A stretch of DNA of 56,444 nucleotides from a virus (lineage: Duplodnaviria; Caudoviricetes), in the IMG/VR virus record IMGVR_UViG_3300045557_000058, positions 1 through 56,444 of that record, one strand, 5' to 3'. Position numbers and translations under genes: made by a program. Under the pieces are notes generated by a model, which was given only the letters and a program-made list of their open reading frames with translations, did not search any database and was not told the DNA's origin. Positions within the stretch are counted from its first letter, which is position 1, and each line of letters begins with the position of its first letter. Positions 11,301 through 55,668 of this stretch are shown piece by piece.

Positions 11301-14300
11301 TTCACGTCGTTTGGAAGAATATTGTCTAACTGTTCTGCATTTTCTCCAAAAACGCGATCAAATCCCATTGTGGAAATAATATCGCGGCGCCGCTCGGACA
11401 GCTCATTGACGATTGTTTTTGCGCCAGCAGTTTTTCCGTAAATCGCGATACCTCCAATTCCGGCGCTTGGTTCCAAAACGGTGTCGGCTGCGGTAATGTT
11501 TGCCGTCCAAGCAACCGCGAAAGCAAGGTCCGGGGGAGTAGAAAACTGCTGAAATTCATCCTGTTCTGCTGTCCGTTTGGTTTGTGTCGGCAGCTTTGCG
11601 ATAACTTCCTTGCGCAGCCGTTCAATGGTATTTTGGGCGTCGCTGGCCGTACCGGTTGGGTTGATTTTTTCGGATTCGATAAACTTGTTTACCCCGCGCT
11701 CCATCGCGTCGTATGCGTCCTTCGAAGTGTAGCGGCCTTCTGCCTGGGTACCGCCGAAATGTTTATCGGCTTCGGAAAACAGTTCGCGCCATGTGATTTC
11801 GTGACCTTCCTTAATCCACGACACTACCTTGTTGGAAAGTCGTGTTGTAGCCGCGGCGTAATCGCTTACCGATTCTTTTTCGCTCGTTTTTGCGACGCGA
11901 TCACTTTGTCCGCTATTCTGTCCACTTTGGGCAATAGGTGTTTTTATGCTTTCGGTGCCAGCGTTTTCGCTACCGCCTTCAAACAGCGCATCAACTTCCG
12001 GGTCGGCTGAGATTTCCGCATCGTTAATAGCATCAATCTTTTCGGCAGCGTATAAAAATTCTTCCTTGTTAGCGAGAACGAATCCTTTTCCATTATTGCC
12101 CATTAGGTGGTAAGCAAAAGCTGCACCTTGCGGCAATCTTCTGGCATTTCTGTATCCGCCATCTATTGCATAATCAATAAAGTCGGCGCGGCCAATAATT
12201 TCTCCGTTGTGATTAACCTTGATTGAATTGATTCGGTTGCGGCGATTTTCAGACTCGGTCTTCGAACGCTTTTCCGCTTTTGCAGCCATAAGTTTTTTAT
12301 GTTCTTCGGGGTATTTGTCTTGCAAATATTGCAGTCGCTCCCCTTGCTTGCGCGGGATTTTTTCTCCAGTGATCGCATCGTATGCCGCCATCCATCGAAC
12401 ATTATCGTTACTGATAAACGCATCGCGCAGCCCGGCATATTTTTCGTAAGAATCGCGTGCGTTCAATATTGTTTGCATGTATGAAAAGTTCAGGTCATAA
12501 AGATTTTTCCTCTCTGGGGTTGCCTTGTCGTATTTTATTGCTTTGCGATAAGCAACTTCTGCGTCTGTTTCTGGCTGAGCAGAAACATAGTTTGGGTTTT
12601 TTGATTCATATTGATCGTTTTTTGCTTTTTCAATTTCTTCAACAGAACTGCCGACAGCCGTTTTCTGGTCGGCAATGGCAGCCTCAACCTGTTCGCGTTC
12701 AAACCTCTCCGCGTACCCTTCCCGCGCTATGGATGGGTGTAGCATAACCTCTGACGGGCTAAGCAATCCACCGCTACGCTCTTTGGTTCCCCATCCTTCC
12801 TCTTTGTCGCGTTCAAGTGAGCGAATCATATCTTTCTTCCACGCCTGATAATGATCTTCATCGCTCATTTCAACCGCCGCGACAGCATCGGAAACACTTC
12901 CGGACTTAACGACGCCTTTCTTGCCTGTTTTCAGCGTGTTGCCCTGTTTTGTTTTGATCACGAACATAGAAGGATCGCTATCATCCACGACAACAAAGCC
13001 GTCGTCTTTCCCTGGGCGGGTAACGGTATCGCCAATATTGATTTTATCAGATTTTATTTCATGTTGCGGTTTGGTTGCGATTTCCGCTTCTTTTGTTGAT
13101 GTGATCGCTTTTTGGTTATTAATGGCAGCGTTTTGCAAGCGGTTCCATTTTTCAATTTCTGTTTTTTCCATGTTTTTGATAGCGCCATACGCAGACAAGT
13201 TATGGGCAGGGTTTATGTCGTACTTTGCGGCAAGCTCTTGATGGTACTGTTCAAATTCTTCTTTTGCAGACATTGGTTTCGCTGCAGATTCTTTTTTTAC
13301 CCAAGATTCCTTCGGTTTGTTTTTCATACTATCAAAACTAATACTGACAGTTTTGCCGTCAGCCATCTTGATTGCTATGCCGGATTTTGTAACCTTTGCA
13401 ACCATTCCGGAACCTTTACTGCTGGTTACTTTGTCGCCGACAGAAAACTGATTTTTGACTGTTGCGACAGATTCTTCTGCCGTTTTTGCAACCGTACTTT
13501 CTATTTCTCCCTGATTATTTATAGGTATAGTTTGTGAAATAGCTTTTTCAGCAGCCGAAGCCGCTTCCGCAACCGTGGTGAATTGGCCCAGGCTTTTGCC
13601 GTCACTGAGCGAAGATTCCCAAACGGCCTTGCCTTGTTCATCAACCGATTGAAACACGGCGGCTTTTGCCGTTTCAAAATTATCACCAACTACATCAAAA
13701 AACATTTCCGGCTCTCCCGGCATGGCGCCGGGGTCGATTTTCCACTTTGAATTAGGCGGGGATACGGGGGCTGCGTCGACTTCGTGCTTTTCCGGCTTCA
13801 TATTTACTGTAAAATCGCCGGGAGCCTCTATTTTATTGGCGTTTGCGGCTTTATCGCCAGGATTGCTAGTAACGTCTGTGTTTTCGGTCGGGAGGGGTAC
13901 AGTACCGGGGATATTTGACTTGTTTGCATGCGCGGACGGGTCTATGAACTCCGCAGGGACCGGCATTGTAATTTGTGTGCCATTTTGAGCAGTAAAAATA
14001 GCTTGTCCGTCCGGTGCCATGCCAGAAAAAGTTACATCACCGAATTGATCATCAGGAACAACGTCGCCGATTTTCAATTTCGGTTGCGCCGGTCCTTGTT
14101 CCGGCGTCTGCACTTGCGTCGGAGTATGAACCGGTCCTTGTGCCGGTATTGGTAACTGATTTTGAACAGGGCCGGACCCGCCGCCGGCAGCTCCCATAAC
14201 ACCGCCAAACAATCCACCGCCGGCAACAGCCTGTTTTGTTTGTGGATTCCATTTCGACGGATCGAGCGACCAGACAAATTCCTCTCCCTGTAGTGGAGTC

Positions 14301-26627: not shown

Positions 26628-27497
26628 CTAGGAAATGCCGGTTACGCAGGCTTGCGCGTCTTTCGAGCGGCATTCCAGCGTAGTTTGCGCGGTAATCAGG
26701 TAGTTGTCCTTGTGGCCCGTTTTGGCCAGCGGCTCCATGTGAGCCGGAATCAGGAACCGCATCTTGAAGTATTGCGGATCCAGAATGTCGACGCGAGCCG
26801 TGCTGATAAGGCGGTGCGGCATCCACTCGACAACACCGGCGTCTGACTCGTAGAACTTGACCGGACCGATGACTTTTTTATCGCCCTGGTCGCGGTTTTT
26901 GTTCGCACCGGCATTGAACGTATTGGCAATACGCTTGTTTTTCATGGCTAGCAATGCAAGAGACGGTTTTCCGCCTTTCTCCCACGCAGCGGCGCAAGCG
27001 TCATTGAACTTGGTTTCGCTGAACACGCTGGAAACGGTATTGTTGACCGTGTTGAAGAACGGAATGCCGCCCATCTTCGGTGCAACACCGTCGGCGCCGA
27101 TATTAGCCGCGTCATGAGTCACGATAGCTTTTTCCATCGACAGCGCCAGCTTTTGCGAATGAATATCGATTTGATACGCCACTTCGTCATTAACGCCGTG
27201 TTTCAGCGTGGCGATTTGAGTATCAGACAGCCAGAACGGGGCGTCAAAGATTTGGACGTAGTTGTCCACTTTACCGCGGGCGTTTACCGGGTTAGTGGTT
27301 ACGTCGGCACCTTCGACGATCGGCGTGGAGTCAGGTACCGGCAGCGAGTCAGTCAAACTCGTTACGGTAGTGCTCTTGGCCGTCTTGTTGCCGAACTTGG
27401 TCAGCATTGGCGTGTCGTCGGGGGAAATGTTGGTGATGATATCGGTAATATCTTCGTACATACCGACAACTTGATAACTTAACGATCCGTCAGCCAT
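26628..27497 (-). CDS. Major capsid protein (SU10/DUF5309-like)
   Basis: EDITDIITNISPDDTP, EGAD, NYVQIF, MGGI, AWEKGG, YESDAG, LAKTG motifs. Confidence 0.88.
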   Translation of the reverse strand: MADGSLSYQVVGMYEDITDIITNISPDDTPMLTKFGNKTAKSTTVTSLTDSLPVPDSTPIVEGADVTTNPVNARGKVDNYVQIFDAPFWLSDTQIATLKHGVNDEVAYQIDIHSQKLALSMEKAIVTHDAANIGADGVAPKMGGIPFFNTVNNTVSSVFSETKFNDACAAAWEKGGKPSLALLAMKNKRIANTFNAGANKNRDQGDKKVIGPVKFYESDAGVVEWMPHRLISTARVDILDPQYFKMRFLIPAHMEPLAKTGHKDNYLITAQTTLECRSKDAQACVTGIS

Positions 27498-27516: not shown

Positions 27517-28674
27517 CTAGCCCCTGCCGCGATTGAATCGCTGCTTCAATAGGGCGATTCGTTCTTCTTGTGGCAAATTGTGTTCTGTTTTTGGCCAGGG
27601 TTTTTGTCCCGGCGTTTCGCTTGGTGTTTGTCTGCCGGTGCCAGGCGGCTGCACTACCGGTACAGCTACAGTCTGGGGTTTGGTGGTAATCCCGAGCTTT
27701 TGCTGTTGGTATTTAGCCTTGCAGAATGTGGCAACCCTCGAAAGTGTCGCCGTGTCTCCACTGGCGACCGCGCTTTCAAACGCTTTGAGCTGCACCCCAT
27801 TTAGGATTTGATGAATCCGGGGGATATCGCGGCCCATGTGATCTTTGCCAACTGATTCAAACGCCCACTGTGCCGTTTCCTCGTATAGAGGATCAGCAGC
27901 TTTTTGCTGCGCTTCCCAGCCAGATAAACGCAATTCGCGTTCCTGCTCCTGCCGCTTTACCGCAGCGTCGGCCTGGTCCTGTTCGCTTTTTACCCGTATC
28001 CCATCATAGAGTGCCATGTTATACACAGTGGCTTGCTCTGGCGATAACGGATCATATTCAAAATCAGGATCCTCTTTGCCGAATGCTTCCTTGACCGCGT
28101 TCATTGCTGCTGTCGTGAGTGATTTCGTATCGACAGCCTTATTTGCGGGAGTCTGCGCGGTTTGCTGCGGTAGAATCGCTTGGACGGACTGGAACATTTG
28201 GTTCAATTGTTCTTCCCGTTGTGCAAGGGTTTGCCGCTGCTGGTTCATTTCGGAGTTTTTGACTTCGTAATCGAACCCTTTCTGCGCCAGATTCCTTACT
28301 TCGGACAAAGGTTTTTGAACCACTTGCCCCCGCCAAGTCAATTCAACCATCGGCTCGTCAGGTTGTGTCTGCGTAGCCTGCTGTGCGGTTTGCTGTGCCG
28401 GCGCGGTTTGAACCGTCGTGCGTGCAGGCGCATTATTCGGAGCTCCCTCTGTTCCTGTCAGTACCACGCGCCCATTTTCAATTTTAAATGACTTGTGCTG
28501 CGACGCATCGCGAATGCGTTCCAAAATTCCCTGTTGCTCTTCATTTGGAGTCAGGTCGGTTTGAATCGCTTCCGTTTGTTGTGTGCTGGCAGGTGCGGCC
28601 TGCGCGGGAGTTGTTTCTGCTGCAGGTTGAGATGTCGATGTGTCCTCAACTGCAAAAATGTCGTCGTTGTCCAT
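27517..28674 (-). CDS. Capsid scaffolding protein
   Basis: Acidic low-complexity N-terminus, EV...QKGFDY..K motif, coiled coil; upstream of capsid gene. Confidence 0.75.
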   Translation of the reverse strand: MDNDDIFAVEDTSTSQPAAETTPAQAAPASTQQTEAIQTDLTPNEEQQGILERIRDASQHKSFKIENGRVVLTGTEGAPNNAPARTTVQTAPAQQTAQQATQTQPDEPMVELTWRGQVVQKPLSEVRNLAQKGFDYEVKNSEMNQQRQTLAQREEQLNQMFQSVQAILPQQTAQTPANKAVDTKSLTTAAMNAVKEAFGKEDPDFEYDPLSPEQATVYNMALYDGIRVKSEQDQADAAVKRQEQERELRLSGWEAQQKAADPLYEETAQWAFESVGKDHMGRDIPRIHQILNGVQLKAFESAVASGDTATLSRVATFCKAKYQQQKLGITTKPQTVAVPVVQPPGTGRQTPSETPGQKPWPKTEHNLPQEERIALLKQRFNRGRG

Positions 28675-28724: not shown

Positions 28725-29039
28725 TCAATCCGTTTCCGGTATTGACGACTGTATTTCGGCCAGTGCGTTCTGGCCTCGATTGACAAGTCCGTGAAGGTGT
28801 TCAGCGAATAGATCGATGCCTAAAAGATGTCCGCGAATCACCATCAAATCATCGCTCGATGCCGCCTTGCGGAGCTTGTCTAGGACTTGCTGCTGCTCCT
28901 GCTGCAGCCAAGAGTTCAGCAATTCGCGGATCAATTCCGCCTGCTGCCCCAGGCTCACCCATTGCGCCAGCTCCTGCTGCCGCGACAATTCCTGCTGCTC
29001 TTTGCTGAGCAATTGCTGCCTGCTGGTCCTCTGCCTCAA
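28725..29039 (-). CDS. Small helical protein between portal and scaffold
   Basis: 104 aa helical ORF, TTG start preceded by GGAGG; overlaps portal 3' end by 191 nt. Confidence 0.5.
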   Translation of the reverse strand: MRQRTSRQQLLSKEQQELSRQQELAQWVSLGQQAELIRELLNSWLQQEQQQVLDKLRKAASSDDLMVIRGHLLGIDLFAEHLHGLVNRGQNALAEIQSSIPETD

Positions 29040-30912
29040 TGTCCTCCACCCTCTTTATAAAATCGTGTACGTTTTTAAAGCCCACGTTTTCAATGAGCTT
29101 GCCTGCGGCGTAAGCTACATGCGACCGTTTTGCAATGCCTGCATCAACCAGCTTTTCATACATACCAAGAAGCATTTGTAGGGATTGAATCTCTGCCGCC
29201 TTCGTGCCGGTGCCGATGCCGCTGTTTACGATAATGTCGATCTCGCCGCTGATATCGTCCGGCCTGACAATTCGCTGCTTGTTCGTTACACGCAGAACCG
29301 TTTGCTCGTCCAAAAACGTTTGATTCAGGTAAATCAAACGCCGAAACAGTTTGTTGTATCCTGTTTCGGCAGCTATTCTGGCAATGAGCGCTATTCGTTT
29401 ATTTGCGGCCTGCATGATCGCTTGAATACCTGTGGCCGTCTTGTTGAGACTATCTCTGTCGGTTCCTTGATTGTAGGCAGTAACGCCGACGCGGTTTTCC
29501 AGAATGTTTCTGGCGTATTCCATCAGCTTCAATACTTCCGGGCTGAATGGTTCTTCCGGGCTCCATTTACACACGGTATTTGGATCGCCGTTGATCTGCA
29601 CAACCTTGTGATTTCCGCGGATTTCCGCAGAGTCCCTGACCTTGTTATAGTCGATGAACAGCTGCCTATCGTTGTTCTTAATGACGTTGTAAGCCATTTG
29701 CAGCAGTAGAATCGTGCGAAGGTCTTGAATCTCACGAACCAGGTCAGCTATGCCGCGATGCGCCTGCATCTTGTGCGGGTCGCGCACGGCAGACAAGTCG
29801 ATGAACGGATGCCCGCCCATTGTGTTGACTTCGATTCGGACCGGCGTATCATTGGCCAGCGTCACAATCAGGTCGACAAGTTCCTCGTCCTCGTCGCTAA
29901 GCGACAGTTTTTCGTAGCACTCATATAAAACAACTTCTTTTCGTCCAGGGTCGTTGTCCGAATAACTTTCGTCTTTCACGCTTGCCTTATCGAGCATGAT
30001 TTCATACTGCGATTTTTTGATATCGCCGGCGCCTTCACGGGCTAGTGTGACGTTTTTGAATTTGCCCTGCTTTTCTTGTATACGCAGGAAAGATATAGTG
30101 ACAGGCTTGTGATGAATGACGTAGTTTGCATCTTCCAGCGTCTTTGCGTCCGGATCATAATACAGCTCGGTATTCGGTACGGTTTCTACTACCGGATGAT
30201 TCGCTGTACGTTTCCGCAGTAGGTACCGGACGTGATAAATGGCAAGCCCTGTTTCCGGATCCGGTGGGTTCGTTTGCTTCACCATTTCAACGGTAACAGC
30301 CGGGTCGTTTTTCAGTGATTCGAGTTCTTCATCGTTGAAAACTACCTCGTACCGCTTGTACGTTTCATCGCGTTTCCACCAAACTTTGAGCACACTGTAA
30401 TTTTCAATCAACATTGCCTTTAACCAGTCGAACGATTGCAGCCAGAACTGGTTCTTGCGGTTAAGCTGCCAGTCAATTACGTCCTCCATCGTCTCCGCTG
30501 GCCCGTCGTCCTCTTCTGTCGCGCCCTGCAGGTTGAGAATTTTTTCAGCACTGTGAAAAATCTCCATCAAAGAAGGCATGATCGACTCCACCGTGTCATG
30601 CACGGACGAATCGGACAGATCAAGGATGAAAACAAGGTCAGGGAATCGCTTTTTCAGGTCTGATTTGCTGGACCGGAACGCCTGCTGCCGCGCAATATAC
30701 TTCGGTTCCAATTCTGTTTCATAGTATTTCTTGCCGCGCGATCGATCTTGCTTCACTTGCTCGACGATGCGCTCGATTTGCGCTTGATCCAGAACGTCTA
30801 ACAGGTTGACGCCTTTCAGCTTTTCGAACTGTTCTTCCTTTGTCGACGTGTCAGCGGGTTTGGTATCCCCGACGGTATCCTGTGCTGGATTCTGTACGTC
30901 CTCTAATGTCAT
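28849..30912 (-). CDS. Portal protein
   Basis: ~687 aa; VHDTVESIMPSLMEIF, NKTATGI, RIALIAR, GEIDIIVNSGIG; start refined to ATG 30912 (SD GGGGG). Confidence 0.88.
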   Translation of the reverse strand: MTLEDVQNPAQDTVGDTKPADTSTKEEQFEKLKGVNLLDVLDQAQIERIVEQVKQDRSRGKKYYETELEPKYIARQQAFRSSKSDLKKRFPDLVFILDLSDSSVHDTVESIMPSLMEIFHSAEKILNLQGATEEDDGPAETMEDVIDWQLNRKNQFWLQSFDWLKAMLIENYSVLKVWWKRDETYKRYEVVFNDEELESLKNDPAVTVEMVKQTNPPDPETGLAIYHVRYLLRKRTANHPVVETVPNTELYYDPDAKTLEDANYVIHHKPVTISFLRIQEKQGKFKNVTLAREGAGDIKKSQYEIMLDKASVKDESYSDNDPGRKEVVLYECYEKLSLSDEDEELVDLIVTLANDTPVRIEVNTMGGHPFIDLSAVRDPHKMQAHRGIADLVREIQDLRTILLLQMAYNVIKNNDRQLFIDYNKVRDSAEIRGNHKVVQINGDPNTVCKWSPEEPFSPEVLKLMEYARNILENRVGVTAYNQGTDRDSLNKTATGIQAIMQAANKRIALIARIAAETGYNKLFRRLIYLNQTFLDEQTVLRVTNKQRIVRPDDISGEIDIIVNSGIGTGTKAAEIQSLQMLLGMYEKLVDAGIAKRSHVAYAAGKLIENVGFKNVHDFIKRVEDIEAEDQQAAIAQQRAAGIVAAAGAGAMGEPGAAGGIDPRIAELLAAAGAAASPRQAPQGGIER

Positions 30913-31717
30913 TGGAGATACCCCCTTGTAGTCTGTTTTCAAACGGTTTGGCGTTCGTTACGCCAAAAATGAAAGCAGCCATATATTGAATGGTGTCCAT
31001 AATGTGAGTAAACATGTTATCTGCCGGCTCTTCCGTGAAGATTCCTGCCACTTCCTTGCGTTGGTAGCCGCCGCGAAAGCCGCCAATAATGTACTGCTCG
31101 CAGCGCGGATCAATCAGCAGCATCGGTTCACCGTCCGGCGTGAGTGTTATCAGCAGTTTGCGCAATGCTTCGTCGCGCTTGGTTAATGTGACCTCGCCAG
31201 CCATTACGTTGATTTCGTATTCTGCACGAAGAATGTCATTGCAGCTCTTCTCGTCTGTTTGTGTCCGTGCATTGCCAGCCGGATCACCTACATCGCTAAA
31301 AGAAAAGCCCGGAAACCAAACTTGGCTTTCAGACTTAACGACTTTACCGTGTGCAGTTATGCCAACACCTTCGGATTGCATTTCAGGGTGCAATATGAGC
31401 AGCTGCCCTTTCGGGCTGACTTGGCCGAATGATGTTGCCGGCGTAAGCCCGTAGTCCCACGCACGACAAATCGGCCTGCCAGGAATCGGCTTAATCGGCT
31501 CTTTCGCGACGTGCAGATTGTATTGAAACTCTGGATACCACGGCTTGCCGCGCGGCGCGTTGAAATTGATGTTGTATTCTCGTTCAAAGTCCTGTTCACT
31601 CATGCCGCGCCTAGCCTCCGCTTCAAACTCCGGCGTGCGCTTCTCCGTATCCGCTGTGTAGTGAATCCGCAGAACGTGAACGCCCTGGGGCGTTTTGTGT
31701 TCGGTTATACCTTCCAT
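30851..31717 (-). CDS. terL: Terminase large subunit, C-terminal part (nuclease domain)
   Basis: LRIHYTAD, FEREYNINF, RAWDYGLTPA, GDPAG, HIMDTIQY (RNase H-like acidic motifs). Confidence 0.85.
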   Translation of the reverse strand: MEGITEHKTPQGVHVLRIHYTADTEKRTPEFEAEARRGMSEQDFEREYNINFNAPRGKPWYPEFQYNLHVAKEPIKPIPGRPICRAWDYGLTPATSFGQVSPKGQLLILHPEMQSEGVGITAHGKVVKSESQVWFPGFSFSDVGDPAGNARTQTDEKSCNDILRAEYEINVMAGEVTLTKRDEALRKLLITLTPDGEPMLLIDPRCEQYIIGGFRGGYQRKEVAGIFTEEPADNMFTHIMDTIQYMAAFIFGVTNAKPFENRLQGGISNDIRGRTESSTGYRRGYQTR

Positions 31718-32022
31718 AGCCGCACCTTTAGAACGGGGTACCAGCCGAAACTAAAGTAGTGTTTTTGTGGCCAATCATGCAACAACCAGCCAATCGTCGG
31801 ACAATACCGCCACTCACCGGCCTCGTTAAACGTCCACGAAAACCCGGTTATTCTATTTTCGAAGTAGTACATATCCCGCCATACACATAATGGAATGGGT
31901 ATCATCTTCCCGAAGAAAAAGAATTGGTATGTCGTTAATAGTCGGCAAAAACTGAACCATTTTGGATTTGTCTGTTTATGCAGCCATAAATAGCGTTTGA
32001 TAAATGCTTTGAGCTTTTTCAT
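31705..32022 (-). CDS. Hypothetical aromatic-rich protein inserted between terminase halves
   Basis: 105 aa ORF tightly coupled to neighbours. Confidence 0.55.
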   Translation of the reverse strand: MKKLKAFIKRYLWLHKQTNPKWFSFCRLLTTYQFFFFGKMIPIPLCVWRDMYYFENRITGFSWTFNEAGEWRYCPTIGWLLHDWPQKHYFSFGWYPVLKVRLWKV

Positions 32023-32023
32023 G

Positions 32024-32263
32024 TCAGACTTCCTCCAAGTTGTCCGCGACCATTTGCATGCAAAAGTCAGCCTGCATGTGACCGATCAACTCGCCGCGCT
32101 CGCCAAAGTCTGCATGGTAAGCCGTTGCCACTGTGCCGTCCTTCATTTTGATTGCAGCTGCCATCGTTACCAGTTCATCATTATCAACCATGCGCTGCAG
32201 CTCTGCTATAAGCTGACGTATGCCAGCCCCTTTGCCAATGTGAACTATCTTTGCCATGATCAT
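32024..32263 (-). CDS. Hypothetical protein inserted between terminase halves
   Basis: 79 aa, SD AAGGAGG. Confidence 0.7.
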   Translation of the reverse strand: MIMAKIVHIGKGAGIRQLIAELQRMVDNDELVTMAAAIKMKDGTVATAYHADFGERGELIGHMQADFCMQMVADNLEEV

Positions 32264-32310: not shown

Positions 32311-32976
32311 TTATAACTTGCCAGTGACAAGCTCTTGAAAGAATCCGGCGTTAGCCGAACTAACGGCAGTGATCTTGCCGCCGCCCTGCATTGTCGGTTT
32401 GAGTGCTCCCCATGTTTGACGTCCCCATTCCCAGAACGCGACCTCGTCCAGCATGACATAGGACGCAGTATACTGGCGCATTTGATCCGGTCCCTGTCCG
32501 ATGCCGAATATCTGGCTGCCGTTGCTGAACCGGATAAGCGGCGGTGCTCCCTTGATCGACTTTATCTTTGGCCACGCGTACCCATCCGGTAAACGACGAT
32601 ACATAAACAAAAGGCGCTCTGGACCAATCAGGTACGCAGAGTCGCCTTCTTTTTTGCTTTGAATGAAAATTGCCGATCTTGGACGAAACAGCGCGGCCCA
32701 TAAATGCAAGGCCAGCAGAATCCAGGTCAGCAGCATACGCCTGCTTTTGGGAATGGCCAGCAGGTTTTCCCGCATCCATACTATGCAGACGTGATGCAAA
32801 TATTCCTTATCAGGAAACTGTTTAATCTTGCCGCCGTCGGCTTCGTCGATTGTCCAGCAGCACTCCTTGATAAACTCCCACGGGTCAGTAGCCCACCGTT
32901 TCATATCCTCGCGGCGTTTCTTTTCCCGCAGCAGTTTCAGCTTGCGCTCTTTATCTCTCCTATCCACCAAGCTCAC
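32311..32976 (-). CDS. terL: Terminase large subunit, N-terminal ATPase part
   Basis: PKSRRMLLTW (Walker A variant), FSNGSQI, VMLDEVAFW (Walker B), VSSAN coupling motif. Confidence 0.85.
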   Translation of the reverse strand: MSLVDRRDKERKLKLLREKKRREDMKRWATDPWEFIKECCWTIDEADGGKIKQFPDKEYLHHVCIVWMRENLLAIPKSRRMLLTWILLALHLWAALFRPRSAIFIQSKKEGDSAYLIGPERLLFMYRRLPDGYAWPKIKSIKGAPPLIRFSNGSQIFGIGQGPDQMRQYTASYVMLDEVAFWEWGRQTWGALKPTMQGGGKITAVSSANAGFFQELVTGKL

Positions 32977-33421: not shown

Positions 33422-33643
33422 CTAAAAGACAGATGCACTTTTCAGCGCCGACTGAACCGCGCTCATCTGAATCTTAATGTAAGCCGTCTGCGCTTTCACG
33501 ACAGCCAGCTTTCCGTCAACGTCCGCCTTCTGCTTCAACAACCCCGTCGACTTCTCACCCAGCCCGCGCAACGCTTCTGCCATTTCGAGCAGTTCCCGCT
33601 GCATCGCCGCAACGTCAACAGACTGCCTTTCTTCATTCGTCAC
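33422..33643 (-). CDS. Small coiled-coil protein
   Basis: Start refined to GTG 33643 with SD GGGAGGG. Confidence 0.55.
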   Translation of the reverse strand: MTNEERQSVDVAAMQRELLEMAEALRGLGEKSTGLLKQKADVDGKLAVVKAQTAYIKIQMSAVQSALKSASVF

Positions 33644-33668
33644 GGTAAGACCCTCCCGCCGATCTTGA

Positions 33669-33884
33669 TCATTTGAACACCTTCCCGCGCCCCTGCGTGT
33701 ATCCGTGGCTGCCATGAATTACGCCGGGATTGTTGCTACCAGGGTACTGCGTCATTAATTTGTTGACGCCTTCCTGTCCTTGACAGGTTCCGTTCTCGTC
33801 AACTTTGAGATTCTTTCGCGTGCAATGGCCGTTTGAGAATCGCCAGACACAATCTTTGTTTTCGCAGGTAATATGGACTGCCAT
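33669..33884 (-). CDS. Small Cys-rich protein (DUF1540-like)
   Basis: C-x4-C-x7-C...C; SD GGAGG. Confidence 0.55.
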   Translation of the reverse strand: MAVHITCENKDCVWRFSNGHCTRKNLKVDENGTCQGQEGVNKLMTQYPGSNNPGVIHGSHGYTQGRGKVFK

Positions 33885-33906
33885 TATTTACCCTCCAACG
33901 CAAGCA

Positions 33907-33966
33907 AAAAGGCCAGACGTTTTCGTCCAGCCTTCTCGTGCGACAACTTTAATTGATCTCATTATA
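33907..33966 (-). promoter_or_regulatory. Putative late promoter (-10 TATAAT, no consensus -35) followed by terminator-like hairpin
   Basis: TATAAT on minus at 33961-33966; hairpin AAGGCTGGACG-AAAA-CGTCTGGCCTT+TTT at ~33907-33934; upstream of packaging genes. Confidence 0.45.
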
Positions 33967-34159
33967 TTCAATACAGTAGTGCTTATCAACACAGGGATGA
34001 TGAACGGAAGTCTTTTTGTTATCTCGCTTTGCTCGGCCTTCGGCTCGCCCATCCGAAATTATTTGCCAAACAAACCGGTCTTTTCTGTCTCTCCCTGGTG
34101 GCAAATCATCATTTAAGCCCGTACTTTCGCCACTGTTAAAAATTACCTTCTATGCCCTA

Positions 34160-34189
34160 TTGACATGTATGTATGTACTAATGTACACT
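34160..34189 (+). promoter_or_regulatory. SigmaA/70-type promoter of the divergent island
   Basis: TTGACA (34160-34165), 18 bp, TACACT (34184-34189); spacer carries TGTA x3. Confidence 0.75.
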
Positions 34190-34195
34190 TTAATT

Positions 34196-34326
34196 AATTC
34201 AAAGGGGCTCCTTGACAACTGAACCGGAACTGAACCAGCTGACAGGCTAGGCGAGCGGATGGGAACCTCTGAACCCCATTGGCCACGACCCGAACCAGCG
34301 CAGCCAGGCAGAACCGGACATTCGTC
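34196..34326 (+). ncRNA. Candidate small RNA released by ribozyme cleavage, carrying six GAACC motifs
   Basis: No plausible sense ORF; GAACC at 34221, 34232, 34263, 34271, 34292, 34311; 5' end inferred from promoter, 3' end from hammerhead cleavage site. Confidence 0.45.
34207..34224 (+). promoter_or_regulatory. boxA-like antitermination element
   Basis: GCTCCTTGACAACTGAAC resembles rrn/nut boxA (GCTCTTT(G/A)A(A/C)A); ~10 nt after predicted TSS. Confidence 0.5.
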
Positions 34327-34369
34327 ACCGGACACGGTTTGATAAGTCCCTGCAATGGGACGAAACGAA
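34321..34369 (+). ncRNA. Type III hammerhead ribozyme (U3-A8 core variant)
   Basis: Stem III TTCGT/ACGAA; GUC cleavage triplet (C34326); stem I ACCG-GACA-CGGT; core TTGATAA; stem II GTCCC-TGCAAT-GGGAC; GAAA. Confidence 0.88.
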
Positions 34370-34382
34370 GGGAGAGATTGAA

Positions 34383-34607
34383 ATGATTCAAAAGAAAATA
34401 GTGTCAGTGGTCCTACCTGGGTTCTACTCGGAAAACGCTGCCAAAAAGATCAAGCAAACTTTTACAAATGCCACATATATGAATTTCGTTATTGAGTACA
34501 GCAATTTCGCTAATAACTGCTCGATTACCGTCAGCACCGATTGCCCCAGAACAACAAAAAAGGAACTTTATGACATGTTCGTGTTCTGTGCGCTAAACAA
34601 CATTTGA
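34383..34607 (+). CDS. Hypothetical protein, first gene of divergent island
   Basis: 74 aa; SD GGGAGAG directly after ribozyme. Confidence 0.7.
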   Translation: MIQKKIVSVVLPGFYSENAAKKIKQTFTNATYMNFVIEYSNFANNCSITVSTDCPRTTKKELYDMFVFCALNNI

Positions 34608-34621
34608 AAGGAATGATTGAA

Positions 34622-34996
34622 ATGGCAAACAAAGAAATCCTGCAACTCATTAAGGAGCGCAAACAGCAAACCAGCGATCTCGTCAGATACGCCAACCCCA
34701 AAAGCAAGACTCGCCCCTGCATCGAAAGGGTACTGCAAATCGTCAGCGCCAAGATTCCATACAAAGGACTCACCCGCCCGGTAGTAACCAGCGCAGCCGT
34801 CACTTATTACAGTCGAAACCAAATTATCAAGACAGCCCGCTTTCGCGTCGAAACTGCTTTCCACGGTGCATGGGAAATATCAGCTTATCAACACCTGAAA
34901 GGACGATCAAAGGAAGAGCGGCAGGCAGACAATAACAGCACATTCCCGAGCGGGCTCTTCACCATCTTCGCAGACAGAATTAAGGAGGGTGTTTGA
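34622..34996 (+). CDS. Hypothetical basic protein
   Basis: Start refined to ATG 34622 (SD AAGGA). Confidence 0.65.
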   Translation: MANKEILQLIKERKQQTSDLVRYANPKSKTRPCIERVLQIVSAKIPYKGLTRPVVTSAAVTYYSRNQIIKTARFRVETAFHGAWEISAYQHLKGRSKEERQADNNSTFPSGLFTIFADRIKEGV

Positions 34997-35207
34997 AATG
35001 GCAATGACGGAAAAAGGAATCTCAACCACGATCTCACCGGGACAAGAGCAATATGAAACCTTCAAAAGTCACCTGAACAAAAAACCTTACGTCATGTACG
35101 ACTACCGCGATCACGACGGGCAGCTCTTCTCCTGCGTTCGCCCTACTCTCAGCCAGTGCCGTACGGAACGAGATTATTGGCTGTCACGAAAGCAAGTAGC
35201 TTCATAG
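34989..35207 (+). CDS. DUF3873-like small protein
   Basis: GQEQYETF...YDYRDHDGQLFSCV.PTL..CR..RD.WL pattern. Confidence 0.6.
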   Translation: MFEMAMTEKGISTTISPGQEQYETFKSHLNKKPYVMYDYRDHDGQLFSCVRPTLSQCRTERDYWLSRKQVAS

Positions 35208-35276
35208 GCAGGGTGGGTTTAGGCCCTGTGCGGCGCCGGGAGGCGCGTACCCAAAAAATCTAAAAGGGGTGTTGTT

Positions 35277-35717
35277 ATGTATAATCTGCCAAAAGTTAAA
35301 GTCCAGCTCGTCAAAGACGGCAATATCAAAATTGAACAGCGCCCGGTGATTCTGTCGCCGGACGACGTAGCCGCGATCATGTACCCTGTCGTCGAACTGC
35401 TGGCTGAAGAACACAGTTACGCGCTGCTGCTAAACATCAAAAACCGCGTCAATGCAATTCACGAAGTCAGTATCGGCTCTCTTGGTGCAGCAATTATCCA
35501 TCCGCGTGAAGTATTCAGGGCGGCGATTTTATCAAACGCTGCATCCATTATCTTGGTCCATAACCATCCCAGCGGCGACCCGACGCCCAGCCCCGAAGAT
35601 GTAGATTTGACAAAAAGATTGGTTGAAGCCGGATCCTTGATTGATATCCCTATACTGGATCATATCATCGTCTGTCCTGGGCGGTATGCTAGTTTAAAAG
35701 AAAGGGGCGTGTTGTAA
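35277..35717 (+). CDS. radC: RadC-like JAB/MPN domain protein
   Basis: HPREVF, ILVHNHPSGDPTPSPED, LDHIIV; JAB domain only. Confidence 0.92.
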   Translation: MYNLPKVKVQLVKDGNIKIEQRPVILSPDDVAAIMYPVVELLAEEHSYALLLNIKNRVNAIHEVSIGSLGAAIIHPREVFRAAILSNAASIILVHNHPSGDPTPSPEDVDLTKRLVEAGSLIDIPILDHIIVCPGRYASLKERGVL

Positions 35718-35718
35718 C

Positions 35719-35916
35719 ATGGAAGAAAAAAGCATCTTTGCAAACATCGATTTTCAAAACCCTGACGAATCATTTGACAAAGCAATCGAAGAAGGCCGGC
35801 TCTCTGCCGACAGGGACGCTGCAAACTACGCCGGAAACTATATGTACATGGGCCATGTTGAAGGCGTTGCACAGTTCAAACACATCGACACTCGCATCTA
35901 TCTGGGGAGGGATTGA
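35719..35916 (+). CDS. Hypothetical small protein
   Basis: 65 aa, coupled to RadC-like gene; YMYMG...FKHIDTR. Confidence 0.7.
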   Translation: MEEKSIFANIDFQNPDESFDKAIEEGRLSADRDAANYAGNYMYMGHVEGVAQFKHIDTRIYLGRD

Positions 35917-35917
35917 T

Positions 35918-36163
35918 ATGAACAACTATAGAATCGTGGTAAAAGCCAACGTCGGTTTTACCATCGCAGCCAGCAGCGAAGCCGAAGCGATTACCAAAGC
36001 AAACCTGTTCCGTGACGAAATGACCGAGATCAACACTGTCGAAAACATGATCATTGAAGATGATTCAATTTGCGGCCAGACCATCACCATATCCGGCGTT
36101 GCTGTTTACCTGGACGAAGAAATCACCGCTGACGATATCGAAGATACGGAGGAAGAATCATGA
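35918..36163 (+). CDS. Small acidic protein
   Basis: Start refined to ATG 35918 (SD GGGAGG); D/E-rich C-terminus. Confidence 0.7.
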   Translation: MNNYRIVVKANVGFTIAASSEAEAITKANLFRDEMTEINTVENMIIEDDSICGQTITISGVAVYLDEEITADDIEDTEEES

Positions 36164-36258
36164 CCAGAAAGCTGCTGCGCAAAGACTCTGACGCCCAAGA
36201 TTGGGAACTTTGTTTAACGTTCGTTGCTACCTTTTGCTTTCTTCTGGCCTGTCGGTAG
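36160..36258 (+). CDS. 32-aa peptide with hydrophobic C-terminus
   Basis: ATGA overlap with upstream stop, SD GGAGG; MTRKLLRKDSDAQDWELCLTFVATFCFLLACR; below ORF-track cutoff. Confidence 0.45.
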   Translation: MTRKLLRKDSDAQDWELCLTFVATFCFLLACR

Positions 36259-36306
36259 CAGGAAAACCTAGTTTAGCGATGAATACATACATAAAATAAA
36301 AAAGGA

Positions 36307-36789
36307 GTGTTGCAAATGTTTATGAATCTAAAAAACGGCGAACTGTCAATCAATACTTATCGGCTGCCGGACGCACTATCTGTCGAGCAAGAAGATGTAA
36401 TTGAAAACTTTTTAGGCGAAACAGGGAAAACAATGACCGCCATTGTCAGCATGACCGTCGAATATGAAGGGAAAACATATTACCTGGCACAACAAGCGTA
36501 CTGCGAAAATTACGGCACTGACGGCGAGGTCCGATACTATGCCGACGCTGTTGACGAAAACGGCGAACAATATAAGGTTGTTTGGGATACTACTGTTGCA
36601 TGGGATAACGGAAACGAAGTTGCTGCCATTGAAATGAAACTGAAAGATCGTCGGTATTTTACTGACGAAGAAGTTGCCAAAATGGAAGATCGGCTAAAAG
36701 AGATTGGCGATAACTATGCAGACATTGAAGATGAATCCGGTGCCTGTGATTGGGATAGCCCGGCAAACGTGTACAAATTAGGAGCGTGA
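36307..36789 (+). CDS. Acidic hypothetical protein
   Basis: 160 aa D/E-rich; SD AAGGAG; DES.ACDW motif. Confidence 0.7.
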   Translation: MLQMFMNLKNGELSINTYRLPDALSVEQEDVIENFLGETGKTMTAIVSMTVEYEGKTYYLAQQAYCENYGTDGEVRYYADAVDENGEQYKVVWDTTVAWDNGNEVAAIEMKLKDRRYFTDEEVAKMEDRLKEIGDNYADIEDESGACDWDSPANVYKLGA

Positions 36790-36793
36790 TATT

Positions 36794-36949
36794 GTGGGAA
36801 CTGCAAAAGTGCCTCGAACTATGAATTACCCTGCTGACGTTGATAAAATGCTGCAGGAAATTATGGCCAAAACCGGAGAAAATGCAACAGCCGTTGTCAT
36901 GCGGCTGATTCGCGAAGAAGCGCAGCGGGGCAACGCTAAAAAGGAGTGA
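36794..36949 (+). CDS. Ribbon-helix-helix (CopG/Arc-like) DNA-binding protein
   Basis: 51 aa MGTAKVPRTMNYPADVDKMLQEIMAKTGENATAVVMRLIREEAQ...: beta strand, helix, G turn, helix; below ORF-track cutoff. Confidence 0.7.
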   Translation: MGTAKVPRTMNYPADVDKMLQEIMAKTGENATAVVMRLIREEAQRGNAKKE

Positions 36950-36955
36950 TCCAAC

Positions 36956-37087
36956 TTGGATAATCCATATAACCCGCTCAATATTATTGTCGATCCATCA
37001 CTACCGCCCGGAACAATCAAAATTCGCAGCGGTAAAGAAACTTGGACCATAATCAACATTGAAACGCTAGAAACCGAAGAAAAGTGA
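36956..37087 (+). CDS. 43-aa hypothetical protein
   Basis: TTG start with SD AAGGAG; MDNPYNPLNIIVDPSLPPGTIKIRSG... Confidence 0.45.
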   Translation: MDNPYNPLNIIVDPSLPPGTIKIRSGKETWTIINIETLETEEK

Positions 37088-37145
37088 CCTCCTAGAATCG
37101 GTTTTAAGGCCCTTCTAATTTCTTCCGCTTATGTTTGTACCAATG

Positions 37146-37179
37146 AAAAAGCCCTCGGATTAACGTCCGGGGGCTTTTT
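37146..37179. terminator. Bidirectional intrinsic terminator between convergent transcription units
   Basis: AAAAAGCCCTCGGA-TTAACG-TCCGGGGGCTTTTT. Confidence 0.88.
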
Positions 37180-37184
37180 GCTAT

Positions 37185-37640
37185 TTATTGCGCATAGTGT
37201 TCGATTATGATCCCTTCTGTGTCGGACGGCGTTTCAAATTGTGCCATCATCCTGTCGATAATTGCAGGGTTTAGCCGACGCAATTCAGCGTTTCTCCGTT
37301 TGCACTCGTCTACCGAAGCTCGCACCCAATGAATCGTTACCGGACCCCATTTGCGCGACAGCTGCGTCCACATTCTCCGACGTTCCCTGGTAGTATTGGT
37401 CGCGTCGATGATAACCGCATATCCCTGCTCCAGCAGCGTATTCACCATGACCTGTGCGATTGCCCAAACCATCGGCTCTGCCTCTGGGATAAACTGCTGG
37501 CCGTGCAGCGCCAGCCTGATTGTGTCGGGGCAGACAACGACGGTATGGAGCGGGCTTACCGTGAGCTGCTTTGCCAGTGTGCTTTTCCCGCTACACGGCA
37601 ACCCTACCATGATAGCGACTCGCGAAACATATTCGCTCAT
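37185..37640 (-). CDS. P-loop kinase (AAA_33/polynucleotide kinase-like)
   Basis: GLPCSGKST, PDTIR, IIDATN...RR; start refined to ATG 37640. Confidence 0.85.
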   Translation of the reverse strand: MSEYVSRVAIMVGLPCSGKSTLAKQLTVSPLHTVVVCPDTIRLALHGQQFIPEAEPMVWAIAQVMVNTLLEQGYAVIIDATNTTRERRRMWTQLSRKWGPVTIHWVRASVDECKRRNAELRRLNPAIIDRMMAQFETPSDTEGIIIEHYAQ

Positions 37641-37909
37641 TCCGCTGCCTCGTATGTCGCAGCAAAGGTGTCGGCCTTGCAAGGATACATTTCGCTGTCA
37701 ATCCCAACGATAATATAATCCCCTTTATCGGCATGAAACCAGCCGGTTTTCGTTTCCACGTCGATGCCGTTGTGCTTGAACATGATCTCGCTATTTTCGT
37801 ATCCCTGGCGCACGCGCTCCGGCAGCGCGTCGTAGTCGTCTTGGTTTAGCCGCAGCAGTTCATCCACCGCATAGGCTTCAACAATGATCGGTTTCTTTTG
37901 GTACTTCAT
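37637..37909 (-). CDS. Conserved phage protein (KKPxxVEA...GDYI...YPCK family)
   Basis: MKYQKKPIIVEA, GDYIIVG..SEMYPCKADTF..TYE. Confidence 0.75.
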   Translation of the reverse strand: MKYQKKPIIVEAYAVDELLRLNQDDYDALPERVRQGYENSEIMFKHNGIDVETKTGWFHADKGDYIIVGIDSEMYPCKADTFAATYEAAE

Positions 37910-52141: not shown

Positions 52142-52180
52142 GACACTCTGACGGTCCTAACGTCAGGGTGTCATTTATTT
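52142..52180. terminator. Stem-loop at end of pentapeptide gene (terminator-like on + strand)
   Basis: GACACTCTGACG-GTCCTAA-CGTCAGGGTGTC followed by ATTTATTTT. Confidence 0.5.
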
Positions 52181-52824
52181 TGTTCTGCCATTGTTTTAAA
52201 AAGAGCAATAGCGGCGGCGTATTCTTTGCCATGCTTTGAATCGTCAGCGTAAACGCTTTTTACCCGCGCTTCAAATTCTTCCAGCGTACCGCCTTGATAG
52301 TCGTTCCAACAGCCGCAGCGAATATTGTTAATCGCGACAAAATATATTGTTGTTGCCGACCTGCTACCAATGCCGCCAACGACAACAATCGGGGAACCAT
52401 CAAAGCTGGAACCATCAAAGCTGGAACGAACAAAGCGGGAATCATCAAAGCTGGAACGAACAAAGCTGGAACGAACAAAGCTGGAACAAACAAAGCTGGA
52501 ACGAACAAAGCTGGAACCATCAAAGCTGGAACGAACAAAGCGGGAATCATCAAAGCTGGAACGAACAAAGCTGGAACGAACAAAGCTGGAACAAACAAAG
52601 CTGGAACGAACAAAGCTGGAACCATCAAAGCTGGAACGAACAAAGCGGGAATCATCAAAGCTGGAACCATCAAAGCTGGAACCATCCAGATTTTTTCCAA
52701 AAACAACAATACCTTGCAGCAATTTGTTGCTAAAATCTGCCTGTTTACCGCCAGGTTCATTGTTTAGCCACCGGCCATGTGATTCGATCATTTTGTCTAC
52801 TTGTTCTTGAGTCAGTTTTTCCAT
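52171..52824 (-). CDS. Pentapeptide-repeat protein
   Basis: Start refined to ATG 52824 (SD AAGGAGG); H.RWL...G..ADF N-cap, 19 x S(S/R)Fxx, GGIGSR...IRCGCW..GTLEEF C-terminal domain. Confidence 0.88.
   Translation of the reverse strand: MEKLTQEQVDKMIESHGRWLNNEPGGKQADFSNKLLQGIVVFGKNLDGSSFDGSSFDDSRFVRSSFDGSSFVRSSFVCSSFVRSSFVRSSFDDSRFVRSSFDGSSFVRSSFVCSSFVRSSFVRSSFDDSRFVRSSFDGSSFDGSPIVVVGGIGSRSATTIYFVAINNIRCGCWNDYQGGTLEEFEARVKSVYADDSKHGKEYAAAIALFKTMAEQNK
52393..52686. repeat. 15-bp tandem repeat with 105-bp higher-order period
   Basis: Units such as CAAAGCTGGAACGAA / CAAAGCTGGAACCAT; a block of 7 units recurs. Confidence 0.92.
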
Positions 52825-52841
52825 TATTTGCCTCCTTGTTT

Positions 52842-53033
52842 TTATTTGTCCATGTAAATCAGCACCGGCATCAACAGCCCCACCGCCTGCCAAATTACCC
52901 ATACCGCCCCGATGATCGCCAGCACAGCGATGGCAATAGCAATGCCTGCTGTTGTCGCAACGTCGCGGCGGGTTAGCATAACCACGCCACCCATGCGGCA
53001 ATGATCGACATTCCCACCGTTACGCCTTTCCAA
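52842..53033 (-). CDS. Small membrane protein (start uncertain)
   Basis: Long hydrophobic segment AGIAIAIAVLAIIGAVWVIWQAVGLL. Confidence 0.45.
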   Translation of the reverse strand: MERRNGGNVDHCRMGGVVMLTRRDVATTAGIAIAIAVLAIIGAVWVIWQAVGLLMPVLIYMDK

Positions 53034-54791: not shown

Positions 54792-55039
54792 GTTGCGCCT
54801 CCGTTGTTCGGATTAAGCGTTTCGCTTACCAGTTGACAAAAAGAATCGCCAAGTTCAGAAATATCAACCCCTAGAGCCTTTGCAATTTTTTCAGCTTCCC
54901 ACAAATATAAGTCTCTTTTTAATCGCTTTGTTCGCAAACCAGATAGTGTCTGCATTGAAATTCCTGTTTGTTCAGAAACCCAATTCATACGCTTACCTGT
55001 TTTTTTGAAAGCTGCGTCAAGAGCCGTTTTGCCTGCCAT
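54788..55039 (-). CDS. Cro-like HTH regulator
   Basis: VSEQTGISMQTLS...KIAKALGVDISEL; divergent from CI-like gene. Confidence 0.85.
   Translation of the reverse strand: MAGKTALDAAFKKTGKRMNWVSEQTGISMQTLSGLRTKRLKRDLYLWEAEKIAKALGVDISELGDSFCQLVSETLNPNNGGAT
54814..54828. promoter_or_regulatory. Distal operator TAAGC-N5-GCTTA inside cro 3' end
   Basis: GATTAAGCGTTTCGCTTACC, one mismatch to the site at 55056-55075. Confidence 0.7.
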
Positions 55040-55058
55040 TTTTTCACCACCTTCCGAT

Positions 55059-55164
55059 TAAGCATTTCGCTTACCTGTGCTTATTTTATATCGGCGTTTT
55101 GCTTATGTCAATATATTTTTGAGCGAATCGCTTATTTTTTTTTCGCCAATATGCGATATGCTTA
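55059..55164. promoter_or_regulatory. Immunity switch: four operators and the cro promoter
   Basis: TAAGC-N5-GCTTA variants at 55059, 55091, 55120, 55150; minus-strand TTGACA (55106-55111), 17 bp, TAAAAT (55083-55088). Confidence 0.8.
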
Positions 55165-55173
55165 GTACGGGAG

Positions 55174-55668
55174 GTGAGATTCTTGGCAAAAATTGAAATG
55201 ACTCCTTTAGCAGTCAGGTTAAAACAAATTAGAGAACAACGCGGCTTTACGCAAGAACAAGTTTCAGAAAAAATCAATGTAGAAATCGGCACTCTGTCTG
55301 GCTACGAAAGGGCATATCGAAAACCTAGCCCAGAAATGCTGTCAAGACTTGCTGATCTTTATGTATGCTCTGCCGACTATCTCCTGGGCCGCGTTGATAG
55401 TCCTAACGATGAACTTGTCCGTGAAACTACCGAACCGCTAGACCCGTCCATTGAGCGCATCGGCTTTACTGATCCATCCCCCGCCGCAATGAAAATCGCT
55501 TCGGCGCTGGAATCGGACCCAGAGTTATTGTCATTTTGGGGTGAACTATCAAAGCGCGAAGATTTGCAACTGCTGTTTAGACAAACAAAAAGCATGACCC
55601 CCGAAACGATTCGGAAAGTCATGCGTATTATTAAAGCGATTGAAGATGATGAGGTAGGCGAGGACTAA
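55174..55668 (+). CDS. CI/ImmR-like XRE repressor
   Basis: RLKQIRE.RG.TQEQV...TLSGYE...P..E.L..LA..Y..S.DYLLGR; exact start uncertain. Confidence 0.9.
   Translation: MRFLAKIEMTPLAVRLKQIREQRGFTQEQVSEKINVEIGTLSGYERAYRKPSPEMLSRLADLYVCSADYLLGRVDSPNDELVRETTEPLDPSIERIGFTDPSPAAMKIASALESDPELLSFWGELSKREDLQLLFRQTKSMTPETIRKVMRIIKAIEDDEVGED

Follow-up and report, generated by a model that had tools for sequence, protein, structure and literature searches.

The Nus complex tethers boxA to the elongating RNA polymerase as an RNA loop and thereby represses translation of the gene behind it; in phage lambda, nutL precedes N by about 200 nt, with a highly structured spacer in between (PMC5725501). RNase III as a modulator of this repression appears in the reference list of the same article. 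Hammerhead ribozymes, on the other side, are known from prophages, where they lie beside small accessory genes; a hammerhead directly upstream of the anti-restriction-type gene ardA and a processing of polycistronic phage RNAs have been discussed, and gene neighbourhoods common to hammerhead and twister ribozymes have been described (PMC3088659, PMC6765202). No settled biological role has yet been assigned to the hammerheads of bacteria and phages (PMC6765202). Here we describe a leader in which a boxA-type signal and a hammerhead ribozyme appear to be combined. It is located on the + strand of IMG/VR virus record IMGVR_UViG_3300045557_000058 (Duplodnaviria; Caudoviricetes), a provirus record which is complete or nearly so and whose 56,444 bp are called the window in the following. 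A promoter at 34160 is followed by a boxA-like 18-mer, a spacer with GAACC pentamers, a hammerhead ribozyme and the first gene of a small operon. Tentatively, and with a probability that we place a little short of even, we read this arrangement as a Nus-type antitermination leader that would be severed from its mRNA by the hammerhead. In the original prediction, which was made from the nucleotide sequence alone, the six GAACC pentamers had been taken for a ribozyme-released decoy or sponge RNA, and an extended antitermination element had been named as an alternative.

Promoter and untranslated leader

The predicted consensus-like promoter is present: it is of the sigma-70 type, extends from 34160 to 34189 on the + strand and consists of TTGACA (34160-34165), an 18-nt spacer and TACACT (34184-34189), matching the consensus at 10 of 12 positions. 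Such a match alone is weak, as 6 promoter-like sites were found in 33600-37400 compared to 4.7 ± 2.2 in shuffled sequences. The assignment is therefore based on its position, since it stands before the first + strand gene and diverges from a promoter on the - strand. The two differences listed for a metagenome variant in this region, at 34154 and 34173, fall outside both hexamers. A second TTGACA at 34212 was rejected as promoter because, as judged by reading, there is no -10 element at the right distance, neither here nor in the other boxA leaders described below.

With transcription expected to start at approximately 34196, the predicted leader RNA would measure ~131 nt from the start to the cut site of the ribozyme, and the untranslated leader 187 nt in all. 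Its frames are limited to one of 27 codons (34259-34342), which starts with ATG behind a poor ribosome site, and two short ones starting with TTG; none of them is credible, in agreement with the earlier view of a leader without a sense open reading frame (ORF). The ribosome site GGGAGAG and the ATG of the first gene, read from the sequence and the list of ORFs, are located at 34370-34385 on the + strand. Besides the hammerhead, Rfam families were found neither in 33850-34650 at E ≤ 10 nor in 34500-37400 at E ≤ 5. The repeat-rich stretch is best read as the 5' untranslated leader at the start of a + strand operon which has its own promoter and terminator.

The boxA-like element

The boxA-like 18-mer GGCTCCTTGACAACTGAA, noticed already in the original prediction, is found at 34206-34223 on the sense (+) strand. 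Its position in the long untranslated leader is an early one, about 10 nt past the expected transcription start and 177 nt ahead of the ATG. The element is not restricted to the window. About five other leaders of mobile elements contain it too, either identical or with a single mismatch, and have the same layout; the sense strand carries it there as well, by reading 180-470 nt ahead of a co-oriented mobile-element gene, and the genes behind it are excisionase-like, primase-like or helicase-like. An exact-pattern scan of IMG/VR revealed GGCTCCTTGACAACTGAA in 3 contigs, two of them distinct. Further, 401 genomes were searched, which belong to a family chosen via one Oscillospiraceae metagenome-assembled genome that carries a relative of the downstream 124-aa gene. 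The DNA search of these family genomes gave four short matches to the leader (L031, L032, L033 and L034). The first, in an Oscillospiraceae genome, is a boxA match and agrees with 34199-34223 at 24 of 25 positions; L032, a 20-nt hairpin before a tRNA that has no ribozyme core, was rejected as a chance match. In a scan of 401 genomes of the order at ≤1 mismatch, the 18-mer turned up at 4 places, spread over 3 genomes; the reversed pattern, used as control, turned up in none of the 401.

Oscillospiraceae rRNA (rrn) operons carry an element ...CCTTGAAAAYTGAA... 107-282 nt before the 16S gene in all of 23 loci, and it is also present in the 16S-23S spacer of 18 of the 20 loci. It is the best 16-mer common to leader and spacer in 14 of 20 loci, with the window not used for its definition, and in 2 further loci the best 16-mer overlaps it in a shifted position. 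BoxA sites before the 16S as well as the 23S genes are bound by NusB/E (PMC5725501), and since this two-site arrangement is the hallmark of boxA, the rrn element was taken as boxA. The 18-mer of the window is identical at 15 of 18 positions to one Oscillospiraceae rrn spacer boxA, and it is the top match of the whole window to a position weight matrix (PWM) made from the Oscillospiraceae rrn boxA, which may not be that of the host.

These similarities have to be weighed against several findings that speak for caution. With the Oscillospiraceae PWM, the 18-mer scores 14.4 bits and real rrn sites 27-33 bits; 14.4 bits are reached by 29 of 200 shuffled windows and an identity of 15/18 by 139 of 200. 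Taken by itself, likeness to the rrn boxA proves nothing. In addition, two positions that never vary in the Oscillospiraceae rrn boxA are different in the element, and the connection to an Oscillospiraceae host consists of one locus of one neighbouring gene. None of 25 loci of the 124-aa family contains a boxA-like element at ≥14/17, and among the loci compared boxA and ribozyme occur together only in the window. The case for boxA is made by the likeness to the rrn element, the position at the start of the leader and the conservation across unrelated leaders, taken jointly, and on these grounds the chance that the 18-mer is a working Nus site may be put at about one half. No obvious boxB hairpin is visible beside the boxA of the window; an N-like gene was not searched for.

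The hammerhead ribozyme

Directly downstream of the spacer, a type III hammerhead ribozyme was detected at 34319-34371 on the + strand (RF00008, 41.4 bits, E = 1.7e-7 in a search of 801 nt). Its core reads UUGAUAA ... GAAA, compared to CUGANGA ... GAAA in the consensus, and the sole departures are U3 (34339) and A8 (34344), two positions that pair in the active hammerhead fold. Covariation to U3-A8 is found in natural hammerheads, and an earlier proof of activity is cited for it (Perreault et al. 2011, PMC3088659). The pairs that close the stems are all present: A34327-U34338 (1.1-2.1), G34346-C34361 (10.1-11.1) and A34365-U34325 (15.1-16.1). The cleavage triplet (NUH) is GUC (34324-34326), and for the isolated 53 nt the three-way junction is the minimum free energy (MFE) structure. 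The cut is predicted between C34326 and 34327, 56 nt before the start codon; position 34326 is precisely where the original prediction had ended the leader, whose 3' end it expected to be set by the hammerhead. The ribosome site of the first gene shares bases with the 3' strand of stem III.

Related contigs were available from four wastewater-metagenome runs of three studies. They are short and probably derive from DNA, and changes within 30 nt of contig ends are unlisted; thus, covariation in stem III is outside the comparison. One contig covers 34233-34378 at ~87% identity. In this diverged relative, 34339 T>C is accompanied by 34344 A>G, converting U3-A8 to C3-G8, and 34327 A>G by 34338 T>C, converting the first pair of stem I from A-U to G-C. 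This pair of double compensatory changes provides good evidence that the ribozyme fold is under selection.

Two observations argue in the opposite direction. The score of 41.4 bits is lower than the Rfam gathering score of 48.5, which is why the hammerhead is unlisted in the Rfam scan of the whole window. Moreover, contig X3 has G8 without C3 and an inserted A beside position 3, which is not reconcilable with an active core; this contig has a depth of 2 and may represent an error or a dead copy. Taken together, 34319-34371 can be assigned to the type III hammerheads on the basis of core, stems and covariation, and the RNA would be expected to cleave itself in vivo.

The GAACC array

The six GAACC pentamers are all present on the + strand, at 34221, 34232, 34263, 34271, 34292 and 34311 (copies 1 to 6), as had been predicted. 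Their spacing is irregular with 11, 31, 8, 21 and 19 nt. The window as a whole is not enriched in GAACC (108 on both strands, 103.5 expected). For comparison, the window was shuffled 200 times (first-order Markov), and the highest number of copies that any pentamer reached within 95 nt, with both strands considered, was 4 in 160 shuffles, 5 in 39 and 6 in 1; the local GAACC cluster is real and non-random. The sole other site of the window with at least 6 clustered pentamers is a coding 15-nt tandem repeat of 19.5 units (52393-52684), which encodes a pentapeptide-repeat protein (52171-53001, - strand). It contains GGAACC, but a link to the array was dropped in view of this coding function. No long tandem repeat was found in 34100-34400 by TRF at a minimum score of 30.

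The six copies are mostly accounted for by the boxA tail, a tandem copy of it, mirror repeats and an apical loop. Copy 1 belongs to the tail of the boxA element (...ACTGAAC), and copy 2 to a perfect tandem copy of this tail 11 nt downstream; the 9-mer AACTGAACC is present twice in 34217-34236 (+ strand), 11 nt from start to start. Copies 2 to 6 are located in an A+C-rich, U-poor spacer of about 95 nt (34224-34318, + strand); the T content of 34218-34320 is 9%. Copies 1 and 6 are formed by the 8-mer GAACCGGA, and copies 2 and 5 are located within 13-mer repeats that are 85% alike. Altogether the leader holds repeats of 8-13 nt, with GAACCGGA and a GAACYGAACCAGC-like sequence present twice each, in mirror order (A, B ... 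B, A) around a weak hairpin. One metagenome contig shares only 34207-34238, comprising boxA and the first two copies, and its flanks are unlike those of the window on both sides. Because it is shared alone, this block of 32 nt behaves as a unit.

An array built in this way could be without function, the residue of small local duplications (slippage) in a spacer that is not under sequence selection. This is consistent with five of the six copies being inside longer repeats, with a hairpin that is not significantly stable and with an array that is not conserved past close relatives. Other findings point the other way: such a cluster arose just once in 200 shuffles, the odd composition (9% T) and the mirror arrangement of the repeats look non-neutral, and a contig with different flanks shares a part of the array. 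We regard a functionless array as unlikely.

A multivalent decoy or sponge RNA, released by the ribozyme, is less probable still, and we consider it very unlikely. The cluster is real and locally non-random, the ribozyme would supply a defined 3' end, the AA of every copy is predicted to be unpaired with two copies in a hairpin loop, and the contig with unlike flanks retains boxA and the first two copies, all of which would suit such an RNA. Against this, 25 loci of the gene family of the downstream 124-aa protein are all without a cluster of at least 4 GAACC in 110 nt, and none was seen in about five other boxA leader contexts, which were read and not formally scanned; the sponge of the original prediction is left without support. 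In the diverged relative copy 5 is lost (34295 C>A), and changes hit 1 of 19 GAACC positions and 7 of 36 positions elsewhere, which is no clear difference in conservation. The irregular spacing, the lack of a long tandem repeat and of an Rfam family, and the fact that the literature consulted yielded no RNA-binding protein known for a GAACC motif argue against a sponge as well. The array is a real local feature, but there is no evidence of a new sponge system.

The repeats could also act in the DNA. Here, the 8-13-bp repeats with GAACC would be operators downstream of the promoter, and one candidate binder, by which the operon would be regulated, is the small ribbon-helix-helix (RHH)-like product of 36794-36949. 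Copies 1 and 2 are spaced by 11 bp, one helical turn, and the 51-aa product weakly matches an RHH-type family (PF07704, E = 0.012, below the cut-off). The operator-like palindromes of the prophage (AGCNWWTCGCTTA, at least 4 copies) are located at 54814-55162 between divergent regulator genes, beside the CI-like repressor (55174-55668); at ≤1 mismatch the pattern has 8 matches in the window, 6 of these in 54814-55162, and none near the promoter at 34160. Since CI-type operators are absent there, another control of the operon is plausible. On the other hand, the overall spacing of the copies is unphased, all of them are downstream of the start site, inside the transcribed leader, and the Pfam match is sub-threshold with nothing that ties the 51-aa protein to the GAACC motif. 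Operators of this kind are improbable.

Two further candidates were dropped: GAACC as antisense of the tRNA T-loop, as the window contains no tRNA or tRNA-like element, and GAACC as NusA sites, for which AUU/AUA are the critical bases (PMC2724277). A search for NusA sites with an 11-nt motif gave no result.

Folding of the leader

The spacer contains an apical hairpin of ATGGG (34259-34263) and CCCAT (34275-34279) on the + strand with an 11-nt loop that holds most of copies 3 and 4. This stem is present in every predicted fold, and the placement of two GAACC at its loop by the original prediction stands. The outer stem proposed together with it (GGCT/AGCC and GCG/CGC) is complementary as written, but the MFE fold uses GCUG/CAGC and CCGG/CCGG instead. 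In this fold, the palindromic cores of the mirror repeats pair (CCGG with CCGG, GCUG with CAGC) and form the arms of the hairpin. Of the eight leader changes listed for the diverged relative, three are in unpaired positions and two keep a pair (U.G to C.G and A-U to G.U). The other three, at 34302, 34295 and 34279, would break pairs unless their respective partners 34240, 34246 and 34259, which lie in the unlisted zone at the contig end, are changed too; 34240 and 34246 vary in another contig. Covariation in the leader hairpin is thus suggestive, not demonstrated. The folding energies count against the reading proposed here: the spacer hairpin has an MFE of -31.1 kcal/mol (z -1.65), 12 of 200 shuffles are as good, and its stability is not significant; the opposite strand folds better (-41.4 vs -31.1 kcal/mol, z -2.22, likewise without significance; 8 vs 1 G.U pairs).

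Folding of the complete leader brings boxA and ribozyme into competition, and also weighs against a leader that is simply cut: the native hammerhead fold is predicted to be 6 kcal/mol less stable than a fold in which boxA and the ribosome site are paired. This raised a further explanation, in which the leader is a conformational switch. boxA (CUCCUUGAC), the AACCG of copies 1 and 6 and the duplicated ACCGGACA would compete with stems I and III of the hammerhead and mask the ribosome site, and cleavage and translation would take place only once boxA is bound by Nus factors or the leader is otherwise unfolded. In the MFE fold of 34196-34385 (-56.5 kcal/mol) boxA is indeed paired with the GUC triplet and the ribosome site, and the native ribozyme fold bears the extra cost given above. 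ACCGGACA is present twice in 34313-34334, 14 nt apart; stem I takes its 5' strand and loop from the second copy, and the CGGU strand could thus pair with the first instead. However, the energies ignore tertiary contacts of the ribozyme and co-transcriptional folding, the overall leader fold is not significant (z -1.40) and the alternative pairs are without covariation data, so that a switch appears to be a rather remote explanation.

A proposed mechanism: Nus loading at the leader and a cut by the ribozyme

The antitermination element, which the original prediction had kept as an alternative, fits the evidence best. Starting from the observed sequence features, the covariation of the ribozyme and the recurrence of the 18-mer, we infer a start of transcription, Nus binding, self-cleavage in vivo and a purpose of the cut as follows. 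boxA near the 5' end would load NusB/S10 and other Nus factors onto RNA polymerase, and the polymerase loaded in this way would resist termination across the untranslated leader of 187 nt and the many short genes behind it. The hammerhead between boxA and the ribosome site would then sever the boxA-bearing leader from the mRNA without the aid of a host enzyme. The cut would remove the RNA loop from boxA to polymerase and free the ribosome site. Because stem III overlaps the ribosome site, and because this site is bound up with boxA in the predicted MFE fold of the uncut leader, cutting could also unmask translation. Our hypothesis is, therefore, that through the cut of the ribozyme the mRNA comes free of the antitermination complex and its translation is unmasked.

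A more far-reaching version is a 'load-and-release' module of boxA, hairpin and hammerhead, to which we give a low probability. After Nus loading, the ribozyme would release a boxA RNA of ~131 nt whose ends are a 5' triphosphate and a 2',3'-cyclic phosphate. It would either stay on the polymerase, which would be termination-resistant with its mRNA untethered, or accumulate and act as a decoy, by which host rRNA operons would be deprived of NusB/S10 or of another protein that binds to the GAACC-bulged hairpin. If true, a concrete task could be named for bacterial hammerheads, and the released RNA would be a ribozyme-made regulatory RNA of a phage.

The provirus and the accessory operon

The operon behind the leader comprises about 10 small genes on the + strand (34383-37087) and forms a 2.7-kb island flanked by two - strand blocks. 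It contains genes for a 74-aa orphan, the 124-aa family protein, DUF3873, RadC and others. A terminator-like hairpin that can work in both directions ends the operon at 37146-37179 (+ strand). As the best reading, which shares the tentative standing of the explanation as a whole, the phage is temperate, a Clostridia-type bacterium is its probable host, and the leader is part of an accessory (moron-like) operon that is transcribed separately.

The structural block extends on the - strand from ~33884 down to 2384 and encodes portal (28849-30942), head, pieces of the large terminase and tail proteins, with the major head protein at 26628-27497. The large terminase seems to be distributed over two - strand ORFs (32311-32976 and 30851-31717) with small ORFs at 31705-32022 and 32024-32263 between them; it may be a split gene or contain an inserted element. 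A single - strand ORF of 4378 aa (2384-15520) encodes a polyvalent protein with a methyltransferase-like region, a strawberry-notch-type helicase (AAA_34, Helicase_C_4), LPD3 and an ART-PolyVal ADP-ribosyltransferase. A virion RNA polymerase with hairpin promoters was considered for this giant ORF and dropped, as it is a polyvalent protein in which a polymerase domain was not found. The promoter that diverges from the leader promoter (TTGATA, 17 nt, TATAAT; 33989-33961, - strand) has 11 of 12 consensus matches. It is followed at 33910-33933 by a 10-bp hairpin and a T run, seen by reading and unflagged in the scan, just before the first late gene (33884). The layout of 33905-33989 (- strand) looks like antitermination-controlled late transcription.

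The second - strand block, from 54791 down to 37185, contains the replication and methylase genes. Its polynucleotide-kinase-like gene (37185-37682) converges on the end of the ribozyme-led operon. Hammerhead products bear a 5'-OH, which is the substrate of polynucleotide kinases.

The 124-aa protein of the operon gave a confident model (pLDDT 90.7), which had no match in the PDB at E ≤ 0.001 and none in the Atlas, and the family has no Pfam match. Ribozymes were found beside homologues of its gene. In L009, and in the same way in L010, a minimal type I hammerhead lies just upstream of the homologue (3925-3975) and a twister-P5 ribozyme (60.1 bits) just downstream (4366-4418); the hammerhead, by reading, folds to the junction and is unlisted by Rfam. 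In L023, a type II hammerhead (4747-4815, 40.6 bits) is located ~400 nt downstream of the homologue.

Relatives of the region or of the phage were found neither among GenBank phages, searched with DNA and with the 385-aa protein encoded at 27517-28674, nor among plasmids. IMG/VR yielded none with four neighbouring proteins, one query giving only a match of 15 residues, and none with two DNA patterns. For the portal protein, there is no relative in 300 scored Clostridia genomes, and only distant matches (~25% identity) are present in GenBank phages.

Comparison with known systems

With sponge RNAs such as CsrB and RsmZ, the leader has only the idea of a short motif repeated in a non-coding RNA in common. 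The repeated word of the window is GAACC and not GGA, and there are six irregular pentamers compared to 18-22 loop motifs. The same holds for ToxI-type antitoxin RNAs and mimics of CRISPR repeats, to which the likeness is again restricted to a short motif repeated in a non-coding RNA; unlike these, the leader has irregular pentamers in place of tandem units of 34-36 nt and is without tandem direct repeats of ~24-37 nt, and a scan of 12 neighbouring proteins revealed no toxin or cas domain, and thus no such gene adjacent to the leader.

Closer are the leaders with the pemK RNA motif (RF02913), for which no match was found in the window. In L035, L036 and L064 and in L037, the identical 18-mer heads a long leader before co-oriented mobile-element genes, as it does in the window. 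These leaders run on with ...ACTGAATA and the pemK motif about 140 nt later (L035 7767-7988 and L064 1501-1722, 70.2 bits; L037 2385-2605, - strand, 63 bits), and have neither a GAACC array nor a hammerhead. We know of no established function of the pemK RNA motif. Since the same 18-mer is found ~140 nt upstream, pemK-motif RNAs may sit in Nus-modified leaders. The shared 18-mer may thus connect Nus-dependent transcription with several orphan RNA elements that occur in mobile elements of Clostridia.

Like the hammerheads of phages and prophages, the hammerhead of the window adjoins small phage accessory genes and has a U3-A8 core, but it is a single ribozyme in a 5' leader behind a boxA-like element. 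A literature search that combined hammerheads, boxA and NusB yielded no description of a natural leader with boxA and a self-cleaving ribozyme; the hammerhead in the article consulted was engineered.

The lambda nutL-N leader and the rrn leaders share with the window a boxA near the 5' end, a structured spacer and an endonucleolytic cut, here a predicted one, before the ribosome site (PMC5725501, PMC2724277). They are unlike in that their cut is made by RNase III, whereas in the window it would be made by the RNA itself, and in that the window has no identified boxB or N-like protein, the latter not searched for, and its Nus binding is putative. The hammerhead is located between the boxA-type signal and the first ribosome site, and hence where RNase III acts in the lambda N leader. 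boxA-dependent antitermination in phage leaders and prophage hammerheads are each known.

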